From Microthyrium microscopicum (Eukaryota), in contig MU004238.1 in assembly GCA_010405405.1 (NCBI GenBank), forward strand, positions 383,530-447,529: a stretch of 64,000 bases of DNA, written 5' to 3'. A program made the position numbers and the translations under genes. The notes below the pieces were generated by a model, which did no database searches, had not been told where the DNA came from, and saw only the letters and a list, made by a program, of their open reading frames with translations. Positions 15,310-52,770 of this stretch are shown here, piece by piece (position 1 is the stretch's first letter; each line of letters begins with the position of its first letter).

Positions 15310-15462
15310 NNNNNNNNNNNNNNNNNNNNNNNNNNNNNNNNNNNNNNNNNNNNNNNNNNNNNNNNNNNNNNNNNNNNNNNNNNNNNNNNNNNNNNNNNNN
15401 NNNNNNNNNNNNNNNNNNNNNNNNNNNNNNNNNNNNNNNNNNNNNNNNNNNNNNNNNNNNNN
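15310..15462. other. Assembly gap (153 N)
   Basis: Run of N; tacttaat flanks both sides. Confidence 0.99.
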
Positions 15463-36174: not shown

Positions 36175-38750
36175 GTTGGAGAAAGAGATGGGTGAGGTGT
36201 TTGTGAAGGAGAAAGAGAGTGCAGATGTTATAGAGTGGGCGGTGAGGATGATATCAGATCTCAAAGAGATCCTAGGTGAATATGGTGAGAGGTGCAGGTC
36301 CTAGAAGATTGTTCGAGGGACGCGTCGATATGGAAGAAGCTGATTATAAGCCTTGGAAATAGAATCGAACAGGTATAATGAAATGTGAAAGAAAGTAGGA
36401 AGTGTGGTGATGGAGGTTCAGTGATGGCAATGGCAACAAACAGGTGTTGATAAAAGTCTGATGGAGTTTTGCAGTGGTCAAAAGCTGTCAGAACTGAGGG
36501 TGGGTGGAAGAGGAGGAAGAGGACTTGAAGAGTGAGCAGTGGACAAAAGATTATATAGGGTTCAAGCTCCAAGGCTGCGATATGGAGGTGGTGGTTGATC
36601 ACCGTCCAAGTGACAATGGGGAAGTGACTGAGAGGTGGCTACAAAATTCAGCACCAATAAATCCATTGATGAGGTGCCTCGAGTGACATTTTACAGAGGT
36701 TATGCCAGTTACTTCAAAACTGCTGCTACTGGCAGTGACCTTACACATATCATGTGGAGAGACTTTGCGCGAGCGGACTCAAATGTCCAGATTCAACCTC
36801 GAGACAGCACATCGCTTATTGAACCAGGAAAGAGAGGTCACGTCTCGAGTGACCAGGCCTTTGATCGCATTTAGAGGTGGAAAACCTCTATGCTGATTCT
36901 TCGGCGAGTCCCAAGACTCAAACCATACGCAATGGTTGCATGATATCGTCCTAGGAACCTGTTACAAATATATTTCTCATTGTACTGGAAGGTCATATAT
37001 CTCATAGATTTCTATCGCTCACGCGCATGCAGATAGCTTTAGTCCTGCCAACAGCTAAGTCGAAGCTTGACAACGATATATGTACCAGATATAGATTCAT
37101 GTTTGTAATCTCTGACACTCCTTGACAATTGGCGTTGTGTTAGGTACTTTATCAATTTTGTGTCAAGCCATAGCACTGAATGATTGCTCTTCCCATCTGA
37201 CAGATCCAGCTCTCCAGAGCCGTCTAGACCTAGCTTTTTTGCCCCCTCTGTCCAAACATTCCAGAGTCCGACAAGACACCACTATGGTCTGCACTTGAGC
37301 GTAAGGAGATGAGGAGGTGGCGCAAAAGGTGGCTGAGCTAAGTCATGGAGAGTATATACGCGAGCCTGTCAAGCCTGTCTATCTTCATGTTCAAGCAGTT
37401 TTACGTACTGGTTCTACCCAATCAGATAGCATCATTCATGTCACTCTGTCAGAAGTAATCGAGTGAGTAATTAGGAGAAGCAGGAATGGTTTCAAGAATA
37501 CCTTAGGTGGACTCCTTGCTCATATGAAGACTTCCTCTGATAATTCGTGTGAAAGCACATCAGATCTTGATCAAAACTATACCCAAGGGGTTGATGCTCT
37601 CAGAGGACTTGAATGGTTCTGATGACGCGATTTACCGTCTGGTTCCCTTAGGATGACTGTTAGGTAGAAATTCATATTGAAAGCATACAAATGGTTTTGA
37701 GATATGAATATTTTCGGACTTCTATGCCTGCCGGTACTCTGTGGTCTCCAAACCATTGCTGCCGATGATTCATGTTTGGGAGGTAAATTCAGGCAATACA
37801 CGTTATGCAAGGTAGAGTTGTCATATTCCCAGCCTCCCAGAAAATTGTCAGGTTTTCTTATCAGGGTGTATCTCTTGAAGAGCAATGATCTATGCTCATC
37901 ACATTTGGTTTATTGAAATTTTCCATGAAGTTTTTTCCCAAGTAGTTTGATCGGTTTGATGGGTCAATGCTCCAGTAAAGATATCATCCATTCAATCTCT
38001 CGATGTTTGGTACTCTAAAGACGATAGCATTAGAATAACGTGTCGCCTCCACACAATCAATCTCACTATTCCCCTTTTTGTCGTCGAAAGGAGTGAGTTT
38101 CTTGGATGGATAATGTCAGCGACTTCCAAATCCCCATAACTTGTCCTACATAGGATACGCTGCGGTTACCATCAAGTGCATCAAGAACTTGGGAGATCAT
38201 CGCAAACGATTGGATTCAAAGCAGGCACTCTTCAAGTGGTCTTCTAGCAGCCTTTGTAGTTGATGGGAAGATCCTTGTGAACGGCTCAAAATAGTGAGTC
38301 TCCCAAGCTCGAAGGCAAGAACGATCAATGTACGGCAAGAGCATATTTCTGTTTCAATCCAGCACGGACATTTTATCCAAACCCGGCAGGCACTCTCAAG
38401 ATCTGGAATTCGATGAGTTTTGGTGATGGAGGCTTTGAACTTTGGATGATCTCCTGAGCCATCATCACTCCCACGCATCTGGCTGATCTTCTCACCCTTA
38501 TCCATCTGCTCTTGATCAAGCTGTTCATACACCCTCACTACAAACAGCAGCATCCGTATCGAAATCTGAGTCTGAGGCCGCACGGTCAATCCACGAGACT
38601 GCTGCCTATAAAGCTTCCTTCTCCACCACTTCTACTCCACTTCTGCTTCAGCATCCTCTCATACTCTAGCACACCCATCACATCACATTGTAGCCATCAG
38701 ATCATATCAAGACCACCGCACAACATCCCACTAACTCACAATCATCAGCC

Positions 38751-41403
38751 ATGGGCAGAAACAAACATCAAATCATTCTTGACATCAGCCTCACAGACTG
38801 GAAGAATTACGAAACTTCACCGGATTACCATGAGGATTCCACGTCTGAGCTATTTCTGGGCCTCAACGAAGAAGGCCATGTCATTTCCAGCGTATCAGAA
38901 GCTCTCACTATGCACTGGCACTCAGCTTGCGGACCGGAGGATCAGCCCGGTCGAAATCGGGAGCAGCAAGAGCTTCAATATTCGGATGGAATGGAGAGCA
39001 TTTCTCTCCTAAATGGTAGGTTTTGCTCGAAATTCCACCTTCTGCCTTTCAACCGTGGCATTCAATGGCTCCAATCGCACTTGATGGCTACCATCGAGTG
39101 TTGGGGCGCCCATGTCATCCTGTGCAAATTTATACTAATGGCTTTAGGCCTTGAAGAAGAGGTTCATCGGTGGTACGAAGCACGGTCAAACGACCCGCAG
39201 GGCCTCCTCGACATCAAGATTTGGCCATTGACAGACTTTGAGCCAACAAAAGATGAATCGAAGTTCTTTGGCATCAAGATCAAAAACCGAAAATATTATG
39301 TTCCGGTCCAACAAATTGACGATTTCATCAAGATTCGTCACGATAGTCACTGGATTATTCCTCTCTGGTGGTTCAATCAGATGGTTCCTGAAGAGTTACA
39401 GAAGCCAAAGACAGTCAAAGTCGAGTCAAAATTCCCAATCATGCAGTTACCAGTCGAAGTTCGCCAAATGATCTGGCAATATACCATTTTCAACGAGCGC
39501 GGCGCTCAAGAAGGAACAGAAGTCAACCGTTTTAGTGGAAGAGTGCTCCATTACTACTTGTTCGACTACGCTAAGAGCCAACTTCAGGTAGTAAGTTGTC
39601 CCCTACAAAAGCAAAATCACCGATTTTTGGACTCCAAGGCAATCAATCCCAAACACTGGATGTCTCCCCAACGCATCTGATGGCTTCCGTAGATTGCAAT
39701 CTTAGATCGAGTACTATAGTACCCATCAGATGCGGTGGGGATTCATCGCGTTTTATGATTTGACCACAAAGACAAAGTCTTGCATATTGCTTGACGAAAT
39801 CCGAAAGTCCAGCACATCAGGTGGCCCCCATCGCATCAGAAGGCTACCATATGGTGCGATGGGACTTACCGCGAAGACGATCTATGCGTAATCTTATACT
39901 GACAAACTCAGGTTAAGGAGCTACCGATCTCGCTTCAAGGTAGTTCGTTCGCCAAACTCCTGAAATCCGAATTCAGAGAAGACTTTCTCAGCGCTGTGCT
40001 TCACAATGTGCACGTATACTTCACAGATTCCCGAGAATTCAATTTCTTTATTGGCCTTGTACCAATCAAGTACATCCGCCAAATCCGCCATCTGGATCTC
40101 GAAATGCTCGCTCCATGGCAATGGATTGATTTCTTCGGTGGTGGACTCCTCCATCCAACCTACAATACTGGCGCCGTCACATTACCGTTCATGAATCTTG
40201 CAACTATCACTCTCAACGTCCACAATATGGGCAAGGACGAGCCGGTCGAACGCCGAAATGGCATTCGTGGCAAAATTGTCAAATCCTCCATCCGAAATCA
40301 GGCAGGATACGATTTCGCTTACGATGCAGTCACACTTAGACAAAATAAGAAGTGGCTATACAATCCAGTGGCTCCTTGCATGACTCATGCGGTCGACTGG
40401 CTGCTCCAACTGATGTTCCCGTTTGTCAGTCATATCACCAAAATCACACTCACGGGCTGGGTTCGCACTCCTCAGAAGGAGCGTTTCCTCAATTTGTGTA
40501 GCCAGGTAAGAGTTCCCAGTTCCGAAAGCGTCAATTCATGGCAAAGTCTTATTTTACCAACACAATTAATGCCTCCCATCGCATTCGATAGCTATGGTCG
40601 AATGCAATGGCTTCCATGAAGTGTTTTATGTTTTCGCCCTGGAATGATGAAATGGTGTGCTTGGAGTTTTTTAGCTCTTACGGAAAGCTCAAACTAACAG
40701 TTTCTAGGTATGACTTCCCTTTGGAAACACGATATTCTTGACGATATCCGATAAGAACAGAATCCTTGATTTTCCCATCAAATGCGATGGTAGCCATCGA
40801 TTGCGATCAGAAGCGCATCATATGGTACCCTCGCACTTGATAATCCTCAACATATAAATCGCTCTGAATCTTATACTGACAACTTTCCAGGTTCCGACTC
40901 GCCATCCCGTGCATGAATTTGATCCAAACAGCCCTTGGGAGCTTAATCCCACCATTCAGCAGTGGGGAAACCACTTTGAGGCGATGTATAACCAGTACTA
41001 CAAGAAGGTGCGAGATCTGGAATATGTTCCCAAGGTCCGCAAGCATGCCCAACAAACATTCGCTCGGGCTGAGGCGATTGTCAATCGCCAGAAAGAGCTA
41101 TTTCTGAAGGCTGTTCATAAGCAGTACAGACTGGCTGGTGGATGCTACTGGGTTGATAAGGATTGGTTGGTCCACAAAAAAGCCGATGGAGGACCTCCGG
41201 GTGTTTGGGAGTACGATGAGGACCGCAACTGGTACCTCTGGAACATCAAAAATGGCTATTACCAGCAGCGTCCGGCTTGCAAATGCTCGCCTCCTTGTGG
41301 CGTAACCCCAGACTTCTACGATGATGGCGAAGAGTGGAAGCACCAACAGTGGTTAGAACAGGGTGAGAGAGAGTTGGAGGCATTCATTCGTGGTGAAGAC
41401 TGA
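38751..41403 (+). CDS. Uncharacterised F-box-like protein (~604 aa); exons 38751-39015, 39148-39590, 39912-40505, 40891-41403
   Basis: GT-AG introns with branch sites join three ORFs into 605 codons including the stop; F-box-like FPIMQLPVEVRQMIWQY; IRHLDL motif; C-terminal CKCSPPC. Confidence 0.75.
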
Positions 41404-41694
41404 AAAAAATGGTGGAAAATCGATTGACCCATCCTAAATTGTTTTGACAATCAGATAGAAAAAATTGGTATTTCTCAATCAAATTGTAAAACTGCGTCTT
41501 CAAAGCAATTCAAAAATACATAGCGAGCCTCCACCGTACTCTATGGATGCCATTAATGCGGTGGCAGACATCAAATGCGATAAGAAAATCTCGTGAAGCC
41601 GAACATGTGTGTGTTTTTGCTTTTGGGTGAGACTCCAAGGAAAACGTGTCATATAGGTGCCATCGATTGCGGTGGTAGCCATCGAAGCAGATGA
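39071..41694. repeat. Cluster of quasi-palindromic CCATC-N6-GATGG arrays
   Basis: Copies at 39071-39106, 39665-39683 with 39723-39741, 39827-39864, 40575-40610, 40774-40832, 41531-41583 and 41660-41694. Confidence 0.85.
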
Positions 41695-42126
41695 AAGAGT
41701 GCCATTATTGACCTCATTTCCTACATTATTTATTTCAGCCTTGTAGACACAAATTCAGCCTTGCAGGAGCTGCACGGACGCAATTCATCCCGCAGCCGTT
41801 GGTTCTTCCTCGATTTTGACAGGGATGGGAAAGCGCCACTGCCAAGCATCTCCAACTGCTGTTAGTCTCTTCTACTTTTGCTCGTTTGCTCTTTCGGCGA
41901 CGACATAGTACTACCAAGAGATCTCGTTTGTCTGGACGTACTAGTTGTTTGTCGCTGTTTGCGTATTTCAAGCTTCAACAACAGGCGAGATGCATCCTCG
42001 TCCTTGCGACCCTCTCTTCTCGTTTATCCCCCAAGCATGATTTGATCTCAACATCCGCCGGTAAGTCCTTTCCAAGAACTCGCGTATTGACAATGATTCC
42101 TTAAGGTACTAACAATATGAATAGAC

Positions 42127-50161: not shown

Positions 50162-50975
50162 ATGCCACTTGAAGAATGCACATGTACCTCAGTCGATAGT
50201 CCACTTTCAATCGCAGTAGCCGCGCTTGATATCATAACCTTCGCCATTGCAGTCACAGGCCTCATTCTAGCCGGAATTGCAATATTTCGATCATATAGAT
50301 CCGCACACGAAGACGCAAACCGCTTTGAAGCAGTTTACAACGCTGCTAATGATGAAGTCAAGCTTTTGCGTTGGGCATATGGACTTGTTCCCGAACTTTT
50401 CGAACCTCGTACTCAAACAGGAGGTTTACCGGAAGGAGCACGAGGAGCGGGTAAGAGAACACAATGAGTTCAGCTTCATATCATATTGGATAGAGCTGAT
50501 TCTTTATTTCCCAGACGAACCCATAAGCACACTAGCCTCCGAGCAACACGGAGTCCACCTCCACGAACTAGATCGCGTCCATACAGCCGGCGGCACAGGT
50601 GGCCGTGAAGTTCGGAAACGACAGTTGGAGAAAGCAGCGACAGATCTTATAGTAATCCTGGATAATGCAGCCATAGATGTAAATACCGAGAAGAATAAGC
50701 TGAGAGACAGTGGATTTAGTTGGCTGAGGAAGAAAGATGGTCTTTTGAATATGATGAAGGAAAGAAGTGCGCTTACGCCGAGTGTGGTTCTGATGAGGTT
50801 GGAATTGATGGGACTGTAAGTTTATTCTTTACGAGTTAAGTAAGATGATATGGCAAAGTGATGTGCTAACGAGGGGCCAAGGCGTATTGAGTCCATTTGT
50901 GAGAATCTGGAGAATATCTCGGATAGGTTGGGTGTACACTTACAGGAAGAAGAAGAAGAAGAAGTAATTGGATGA
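50162..50975 (+). CDS. Small protein (~227 aa) resembling fungal HeLo-like N-terminal domains; introns 50451-50514 and 50816-50881
   Basis: Splice sites restore one frame; DSPLSIA followed by a hydrophobic helix; WLRKKDGLLNMMKER..LTPSVVLMRL; acidic tail. The family call is tentative. Confidence 0.7.
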
Positions 50976-51724
50976 AGGAGACGATGCTGGCTGTGGAAGA
51001 TGTCAGAAGATTCCAACTCAAATGCTGATATATCAGGAGGTTACATGTAAGGTCATTAGAATAATATCATCCTTGACTGGCTCCGTTGTTGATACATGTA
51101 ATTTGCCCATCGCACAAATACTGATATAATTCAATGTCTGATATACTAGAAATATGACCAGCTTTCGAAATCATATATGAGCTTGTGAGCTTCAACCAGA
51201 AGTGATAAATACATTCAATACTAACAATAGATTATTTGCAGACAGACTCCCTAATCTTGTCGTTATGGTTCGTATGCTATGGATCAATTCATATAAATCC
51301 ACGTCGACAAAGCATTCACAAAATGTGTTTTCGTCACAATCTTAACAGCAACCAAAGAATCTCACTTAAAGAACAATATATAGAGGATAAAGAATAACAC
51401 CACCCATGATGTCAGGCTCTGAAGACATATAAGCGTTGAAGAGACACAAAGACTTGGAAGTTGAACTAGAGTCTGGGCACGCAGAAAGTGTAACAAAGGC
51501 TCCACTTTGAGGGGTCCCAAGGCTGGGGAAATGGGTCTGGACCGTAGATTTTCAGCTTCTAGTTGAAGATTGTCGTATCTTAGCTAGGATTGGCATGAGG
51601 ATACCTGGTGTTCGGTAATAGAAATGGACTGGAGGAGAGAGGGGACTGGTCAACAGAAGAAATGGGCGCTCACATGAGCTTACTTGGCTGCCACCCGCCA
51701 CGTTCTACATCGCTTGCTCAAGTC

Positions 51725-51795
51725 GCGTCGAATACGATGGGCATTAGAGAATGTGCTATTTATCAAGTGCTATGGCAGACATCGCACTTGATGGG
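51725..51795. repeat. Further CCATC-N6-GATGG array upstream of PPZ1
   Basis: gcgtc-gaatac-gatgg, then ttatc-aagtgc-tatgg cag acatc-gcactt-gatgg. Confidence 0.7.
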
Positions 51796-52770
51796 AAGGT
51801 GGGAGATATTTCTATGTTGCCTCTGGAAGGACAAGATTGATGGAGTTGGGGAGAGCGGGGACAACTAGAAAAGTACGCTAGTCCTTGTTTGTCGGGAGCC
51901 TTGAACCTCCAAGAAGAAAGCGTGAGACTTGTTGGGAACTTTGGAACCTTCTTTCATCACCAAACTTCCGCCACCATCTTTGATCTCGACTCTTCTTCTG
52001 GGTCACTACCAACACCATTGTCCCCGCTAAATCGTCTCAGTATCCACCATCGTCAACTCTTCAGCTCTCTCCCTCAACAGGCATCTTCTATTCCGTCCTT
52101 CCCTTTCCTCAACTTCAACATCCGCCCTGTTGCTGTTTACCTTCCTTGTGATCCGCTTCACTTGTGCCTTCTTCTTATTCTTGACGACTCATCAAGAAGC
52201 TTGGATCTGGTCTGGGCCCAAACACTCTACTCGCACCTTTTCCTCCGATACCAGCTAAACCCAACATTGCGCGTCATTCTACGACTTTCTCTCCTTCGCT
52301 CTTCCCCATCTGATTCTACCTTTGCTTCCATCGGCATTGTCAACGCCCTCTTGGCCTTCGCCTTGTGTCCCCTGTACTCAATCAACAACATTTGCCTGCC
52401 CCTGTTGCAAAACTTGCGCTCGCTATTCCTCTTTAGCAATACCCAACACCTCGTCAGTTTCAACAACTCAGGTACAGCGGTGATCACAAGTGCTTCAGTA
52501 ACTACTCTTCTCGCCGATTTTGGCTCCTAAACATTCACATTGATCCTTGCCGGGGTGACTTCCTCCGGCCAAAAGCCTAACAACGGCGTCTACTGAGCCG
52601 CTCTTTCTCTTCCTTTCTCGATTGTACCGCCCTCCTTAACATCGTCATATCGTCCGCGTGATACACCTTGGATCAAACGTCATACCAAAGCTTTATTCTT
52701 TTCGCGCAACAATCTCAATACTCTGTCTTGTTCACCATTACAACAATAATTGAAGCGGTAGTCGGTGGAT

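Follow-up and report, generated by a model that had tools for sequence, protein, structure and literature searches.

What gives rise to new spliceosomal introns is still an open question, and fungal introner-like elements are among the few sources that have been observed, their copying mechanism being unknown. Introner-like elements of Dothideomycetes are said to have been described by van der Burgt et al. in 2012. The same question is raised by a + strand gene at positions 38751-41403 of a 64,000-nt stretch of Microthyrium microscopicum DNA (contig MU004238.1, 383,530 to 447,529; hereafter the window, to which all coordinates refer), in which three long, hairpin-bearing introns resemble one another. 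Do these introns descend from a common unit, and do they belong to a propagating introner-like family, as the initial annotation of this locus proposed? The explanation that we favour, with a probability of roughly one half, is an old copying, within this one gene, of an intron unit built around a dispersed palindromic repeat. On this explanation the introns would not be a currently active genome-wide introner family.

Three introns in a single open frame

Taking the three introns out of the gene yields a single open frame of 604 aa over four exons with a summed length of 1815 nt. The intron coordinates and lengths of the initial annotation (132, 321 and 385 nt) proved correct, and each of the exons below is open after intron removal.

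38751-39015, + strand: exon 1
39016-39147, + strand: intron 1, 132 nt, GTAGGT..TTTAG, monomer-like, with a 5' part, one hairpin and the TTATACTAAT branch region
39148-39590, + strand: exon 2
39591-39911, + strand: intron 2, 321 nt (324 nt with the GT at 39588 as donor), with two hairpins (A and B)
39912-40505, + strand: exon 3
40506-40890, + strand: intron 3, 385 nt, with two hairpins; a transcript-like contig shows it removed
40891-41403, + strand: exon 4

The three are genuine spliceosomal introns, with excision seen for intron 3 alone and predicted for introns 1 and 2. Canonical donor, branch point and acceptor signals can be read in them, including plain donors of the GTAAGT and GTAAGA type. 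The read-through frame of introns 2 and 3 contains stops, and the frame stays open only if both are spliced out. Intron 1, whose length is divisible by three, has no in-frame stop, so that its splicing is predicted from its signals alone (GTAGGT, TACTAAT, TTTAG). Retention of intron 1 would insert 44 residues into an unbroken protein (open reading frame, ORF, 38694-39680).

The excision of intron 3 is seen in run X5, whose RNA nature is a guess, as none of the listed runs is recorded as RNA. Record 18 of this run (254 nt, no differing letters) has a joint 40501>40887 that skips 385 nt, with GT..AG when the cut is moved by +4. It also spans 40429-40501, favouring the intron 3 donor at 40506 over the donor at 40425 in the gene model of the deposited protein P0001 (see below). 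Five short X5 contigs lie on the host gene, all of them exonic and without differing letters, and the junction that they cover is that of intron 3. The transcript check that the initial annotation had suggested for the junctions thus bears out intron 3, with exactly 385 nt skipped, introns 1 and 2 lying outside the cover. The source-like DNA runs X1 and X3 contain the entire stretch, intron included.

Relatedness of the introns

The global alignment of introns 2 and 3 scores 174.5, against 83 ± 8 for mononucleotide shuffles (z 11.1) and 81 ± 12 for genomic controls (z 8.0). The latter were 300 random same-length stretches from the gene-rich part of the window, taken from either strand, and none of them attains the score. 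Identical letters make up 225 of 296 aligned pairs (76%), in an alignment of 410 columns with 114 gapped. The likeness is patchy yet collinear, passing in order through hairpin A (block score z 5.4), a spacer containing GTTTTATGWTTT and CTTGACGAWATCCGA (z 3.0, attained by 4 of 500 controls), hairpin B (z 6.9) and an exact 16-mer; past hairpin B and up to the 16-mer the two introns show no likeness. The 16-mer lies at the branch site in both cases, as the initial annotation had recorded:

39890-39905, + strand: 16-nt block AATCTTATACTGACAA at the branch site of intron 2, an exact match to 40867-40882
40867-40882, + strand: 16-nt block AATCTTATACTGACAA at the branch site of intron 3, an exact match to 39890-39905

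The other signals singled out in that annotation are present as well, namely the common CAG|GTT at the end of introns 2 and 3 and a related branch sequence in intron 1 (AATTTATACTAAT, 39127-39139). The motif TTATACTRAY occurs five times in the window, and outside an AT-rich block only three times, once in each host-gene intron.

The exon flanks of introns 2 and 3 (120 nt and 30 nt) are unrelated (z -0.12 to 0.82), and the host protein has no internal repeat by self-BLASTP. This indicates that the copied unit was the intron and not an exon-intron block. A segmental duplication of such a block was considered and rejected, the likeness ending at the splice sites.

The relationship of intron 1 to the others is weaker: its score is attained by 4 of 300 controls against intron 2 and by 1 of 300 against intron 3. 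The part that it matches best is the first half of intron 3 (z 3.5, 3 of 500 controls). The halves of intron 3 (40506-40707 and 40708-40890) are themselves mutually related (z 5.16, none of 500 controls), and a candidate splice site, read from the sequence, lies at their border:

40694-40713, + strand: inner CTAAC-N6-TAG|GTATGA of intron 3, a full branch and acceptor abutting a donor

By our own post hoc arithmetic, about 1 in 100 introns as long as intron 3 would contain such a branch-acceptor|donor junction by chance. A weaker counterpart in intron 2 is CATCAG|GTGGCC, at 39820|39821.

Six-nucleotide direct repeats are found at both junctions of the longer introns, TCAGGT at intron 2 (39584-39589/39907-39912) and CCAGGT at intron 3 (40502-40507/40887-40892), four of the six letters following from the AG|GT consensus; intron 1 has no such repeat. 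The inverted-repeat listing contains no inverted pair joining the intron ends. Between the intron 2 and 3 copies there is no footprint of repeat-induced point mutation (RIP), the 71 mismatches comprising 23 transitions against 48 transversions.

The initial annotation had ascribed all three introns to a common origin by intron propagation. For introns 2 and 3 the sequence comparisons support a shared origin by copying of an intron-sized unit; intron 1 probably shares it, on weak support.

A hairpin family made of inverted half-sites

Each hairpin unit consists of an inverted pair of the 16-nt half-site CCATCGCA-YYN-GATGG, a consensus taken from an alignment of units. The shared hairpin family claimed for the introns is real, the half-site patterns being strongly enriched at the host gene:

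ATCGCAYYNGATGG, up to 2 mismatches: 16 in the window against 1.87 expected; 12 local, 10 of them in introns and 2 in the 3' flank; none of 100 shuffles reaches 16
CCATCNNNNNNGATGG, up to 1 mismatch: 11 in the window against 0.49 expected; 9 in the three introns or the 3' flank
CCATCGCAT, up to 1 mismatch: 16 in the window against 6.72 expected; 8 local, with a ninth at 38675 in the 5' leader
GATGGNNNCCATC, up to 1 mismatch: 5 in the window against 0.68 expected; 4 in the three introns or the 3' flank

No match to the ATCGCAYYNGATGG pattern falls in the 1815 nt of exon. Within the introns the half-sites form the following hairpins, whose folding was compared with shuffled sequences:

39068-39107, + strand: hairpin of intron 1, -24.9 kcal/mol, z -4.58, 0 of 200 shuffles
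39659-39747, + strand: hairpin A of intron 2, an 18-bp core stem with one mismatch, -42.3 kcal/mol, z -5.48, 0 of 200 shuffles
39827-39863, + strand: hairpin B of intron 2, z -3.06, 1 of 200 shuffles
40576-40610, + strand: hairpin A of intron 3, z -2.37, 4 of 200 shuffles
40777-40841, + strand: hairpin B of intron 3, z -3.22, 2 of 200 shuffles

As a whole, intron 2 (z -4.27) and intron 3 (z -2.93) each fold better than all of 100 shuffles, and intron 1 folds no better than shuffles (z -1.47, 19 of 200). Over the 17 pairs of the stem and the eight units, 76.5% of cells are paired, a fraction inflated by the derivation of the tested structure from the same sequences, and 7 of the 17 pairs have changed on both sides. 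The stem covariation of 0.305 compares with 0.187 in shuffles (none of 500 attains it) and with 0.05-0.20 in slid controls. Each unit carries its own central triplet, matched in the partner arm, and all units are alike in both orientations. A search of Rfam with 38300-41900 gave no match at E up to 1.

Hairpins A and B of intron 3 are in addition complementary to each other, 40563-40589 with 40777-40803 (27 nt, 81%, 187 nt apart), and this complementarity could pair the two halves of the intron. The 5' leader has one candidate for a further unit (38660-38715), which was discarded for failing to fold (z +1.07, equalled by 172 of 200 shuffles).

Units outside the introns

Members of the same family also occur beyond the introns:

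41525-41693, orientation ambiguous: two hairpin units in the 3' flank, outside the modelled introns
51760-51794, no strand assigned: one more hairpin unit built of these half-sites, 10 kb away in non-coding DNA; fold z -3.34 (51725-51805)

A profile of the three introns retrieves 41529-41693 with nhmmer (E 3.2e-4), the likeness holding in both orientations with z about 3. The 64-kb window, about 38 kb of it gene-rich, contains no further full-length relative of the introns. The outlying unit and a lone half-site (51107-51115) lie in about 1 kb without long ORFs (50820-51840), between two + strand ORFs; this stretch may be intergenic or a long intron.

Comparison with other loci was made at a likeness of 85% or more, and whole introns were not matched. 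At least five other contigs of the source-like assembly carry hairpin pieces only, of 21-42 nt with 1-7 differing letters; one of these contigs has two such pieces about 100 nt apart. Run X3 has an additional exact hairpin piece of 19 nt, and record 19 of X5, from another locus, resembles hairpin A of intron 3 with 7 differing letters. By our own arithmetic, other-locus matches of 32-42 nt are far beyond chance at that genome size, which indicates that the palindrome is a dispersed repeat.

Origin of the introns

Under the reading that we favour, the ancestor would have been one intron-sized sequence copied within the host gene. The copied unit would extend from a donor GTAAG to an acceptor CAG and would comprise a 5' part, one strong hairpin of inverted half-sites and a TTATACTRAY branch region. 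Intron 1 would hold a single such monomer of ~130-200 nt, and introns 2 and 3 either two apiece or a two-hairpin version of it. The copies would be old and degenerate, with the hairpins, two spacer blocks and the branch block persisting and the remainder randomised. The likeliest route might be a transposition of the intron within or near the same transcript, through reverse splicing and recombination; alternatively, the intron unit may have been duplicated locally at the DNA level. The introns are best read as belonging to the class 'same-gene duplication without exon duplication', as set out by Collemare et al. 2013, with the addition of introner-like length and structure.

Several observations weigh against same-gene copying. 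Introns 2 and 3 show no significant likeness in their 5' parts, whose score is attained by 20 of 500 controls. As the units are alike in both orientations, the orthology of A to A and of B to B is weak, and shared repeat units could account for much of the intron likeness. The units at 41525-41693 and 51760-51794 fit a repeat acting at the DNA level and not one specific to introns. The inflation of the paired fraction noted above counts on the same side, as does the ratio of G-U to A-C cells in the stem (14 to 7), a weak lean toward a structure of the sense-strand RNA. Support from transcript-like contigs reaches intron 3 alone, and comes from a run guessed to be RNA. Finally, the search for full copies spans the 64-kb window, and many diverged copies in other genes are possible.

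Part of this evidence would suit a mobile or dispersed palindromic repeat of ~40 nt, made of two inverted half-sites, that inserted into already long introns and into intergenic DNA. The units form one family matching in both orientations, they are present in the 3' flank, near 51.8 kb and elsewhere in the assembly, and it is mainly in the hairpins that introns 2 and 3 are alike. We nevertheless consider such insertion unlikely: the non-hairpin blocks are collinear too, including the spacer (4 of 500 controls) and the exact 16-mer, whose match has by our own estimate a chance of about 1e-6 allowing for the shared branch motif. Target-site duplications or TA flanks are not visible around the units on reading the sequence, and central triplets that are specific to each unit and matched in the partner arm would not be expected from random decay of one insert. 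It is similarly doubtful that the introns are true introner-like elements, that is, several hits of a self-propagating, genome-wide family that is now too degenerate for BLAST screens. Their length, 3-7 times that of neighbouring candidate introns, their stable structures with compensated stem changes and a likeness that ends exactly at the splice sites all accord with this view, as do the hairpin pieces on at least five other contigs, one with two pieces about 100 nt apart, and the fast degeneration ascribed to such elements (PMC4457414). However, about 38 kb of gene-rich window DNA holds no further copy, other loci match over 19-42 nt only and not over whole introns, hairpin units are present outside introns as well, and both published screens give zero families for Microthyrium microscopicum in the entries cited below.

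Stems that stay near-perfect while the surrounding intron has diverged, compensated changes and the G-U excess might instead reflect hairpins retained for an RNA function, either to shorten the effective distance from donor to branch or as small-RNA precursors, the likeness being due to selection. We regard this as very improbable, given the empty Rfam search, the units outside introns and a strand bias that is not significant. Ordinary unrelated introns, alike through chance and shared splice signals, would agree with the dissimilar 5' parts and with the unremarkable folding of whole intron 1. Against this stand the failure of all 300 genomic controls to attain the intron 2 against 3 score and the half-site counts of 16 against 1.87 and 11 against 0.49 expected; chance likeness is excluded for practical purposes. 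A bolder and rather improbable proposal is that of an unrecorded, structured intron-generating element, in a lineage scored as introner-free by two systematic screens, that would spread mainly locally in one transcription unit and could settle beside copies of itself, intron 3 consisting of two abutting elements. If so, 40694-40713 would be a zero-length exon, intron 3 being removable in two steps, and intron 3 would give a snapshot of the assembly of a long fungal intron from introner-like monomers.

Comparison with known intron-generating systems

Introner-like elements have about twice the length of other introns and a lower folding energy, show compensatory changes and decay quickly (PMC3609843), and Collemare et al. 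2015 report four genes that carry two such elements each (PMC4457414). The host-gene introns resemble them in being canonical spliceosomal introns of a Dothideomycete, several times the regular length, with compensated hairpins, a likeness bounded by the splice sites, more than one copy per gene and decay in both length and sequence. Unlike introner-like elements, their observed copies are limited to one gene and its flank, and the hairpin unit is also found outside introns. Same-gene intron duplications, half of which occur without exon duplication and are ascribed to transposition within a transcript, have ordinary length and folding energy and near-identical sequences (PMC3609843). The host gene shares with these the presence of related introns in one gene with flanking exons that are not duplicated, and differs in that its copies are diverged (76%, many gaps), long and strongly structured. 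The host gene thus shows the length, structure and bounded likeness of introner-like elements, but the distribution of same-gene duplications.

Two further systems were compared. The stwintrons and sister introns of Hypoxylaceae (Fekete et al. 2021, PMC8469720) have in common with the host gene a marked internal symmetry; the stwintrons proliferate without flanking short duplications and possess terminal inverted repeats of 45-55 nt and a donor split by the inner intron. In contrast, the inverted repeats of the host gene are internal and local, its donors are unsplit, and the inner acceptor|donor pair lies in the middle of intron 3. With transposon-type introners (PMC9860276, PMC12130899) the locus shares a repeated sequence that supplies introns, and the 6-nt junction repeats at introns 2 and 3, mostly explained by the AG|GT consensus, may be a further likeness; the locus lacks their terminal inverted repeats, and no family of at least four introns is reported in the entries available for the species. 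Ascomycete introners are treated by Gozashti et al. 2022 as an outlier without transposon marks (PMC9860276).

In the 2022 introner screen by the same authors, the supplement row for Microthyrium microscopicum reads 0.0 0.0 0 0, figures taken here as zero introner families (PMC9860276), and Dataset S1 of Gozashti et al. 2025 gives a 'number of introner families' of 0 for the species (PMC12130899). As described in these sources, the screens required BLAST matches of E 1e-5 or better, dropped pairs with alike host proteins and defined families as at least four introns. The best blastn-short matches between the introns of the host gene measure 16-23 nt, at E 0.004-0.019, and lie within one gene, so that such screens would miss the intron 2/3 pair. 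A literature search pairing Microthyrium microscopicum with 'introner' found no paper. The name introner-like given in the initial annotation calls for numerous copies spread over unrelated genes, and such a spread was not observed: there is no second full-length copy in the window, the matches at other loci are short hairpin pieces, and the screens count zero families.

Host protein and genomic surroundings

Searching with exon 3 yields one protein, P0001 (577 aa, 100% identical over the shared parts), which at NCBI is a hypothetical protein of Microthyrium microscopicum. Its gene model matches introns 1 and 2 and differs at the donor of intron 3, placed 81 nt upstream at 40425 (GTCAGT), owing to which 27 residues of our model (40425-40505) have no counterpart in P0001. 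Protein searches used single exons for Pfam and the 577-aa P0001 otherwise, the 27 exon 3 residues being covered by the exon-wise Pfam search alone. Pfam gives a sub-threshold 2EXR match (E 0.0079), suggesting a weak 2EXR-like motif. A word-index protein search with P0001 returns only itself (1 of 1 matches), and an exhaustive HMMER scan of 1.84 billion representatives adds one further protein (E 1.2e-5, 28% identity, residues 183-315). The window contains no paralogue of the host gene, tblastn giving only weak matches (best E 0.23). On these searches, which returned no orthologue with which to compare intron positions, the host protein is classed as a lineage-specific orphan.

At a second locus of the assembly, a 96-nt stretch of exon 1 (38759-38854) recurs with 10 letters changed, and record 14 of X5, from another locus, corresponds to part of exon 1, also with 10 differing letters. 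In X5 the word depth is 748 on the contig of this exon 1-like locus and 3-6 on the host gene. The stretch could be a repeat, or an N-terminal module that the two loci share.

The neighbouring genes are conserved and encode, by Pfam, a UvrD-type helicase, an EF-hand/ZZ protein, HsbA, a PP1-type phosphatase, an aldehyde dehydrogenase and Nop9; the helicase gene lies upstream of the host gene and the EF-hand/ZZ gene downstream of it. Where neighbours have domains confirmed by Pfam, a heuristic intron finder places plausible introns of 49-126 nt (e.g. one of 107 nt splitting Nop9), and it is relative to these that the host-gene introns are 3-7 times as long. The range of 49-126 nt that the initial annotation gave for other genes is therefore matched by these candidates, and the same scan also yields longer, unverified ones.

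The first 26 kb of the window (1-26000) form an AT-rich block with a GC content of 0.224, against about 47% in the gene-rich remainder. Its TpA/ApT ratio is 1.70 and its (CpA+TpG)/(ApC+GpT) ratio 0.10, the values for 26501-64000 being 0.65 and 1.33; we take this bias to be of a strong RIP type, presuming the customary thresholds. A run of 153 N lies within the block at 15310-15462.

Implications

Three to five related hairpin-bearing intron units with unrelated exon flanks provide a compact case of short-range intron copying. They occur in a genome scored negative by homology screens, which implies that such screens miss copies that are old, diverged or confined to the same gene. If copies prove frequent genome-wide, a further order of Dothideomycetes would join the known range of introner-like elements. 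Confinement of the copies to the host gene would instead support transposition within the same transcript as a separate and rarer route by which introns are gained.

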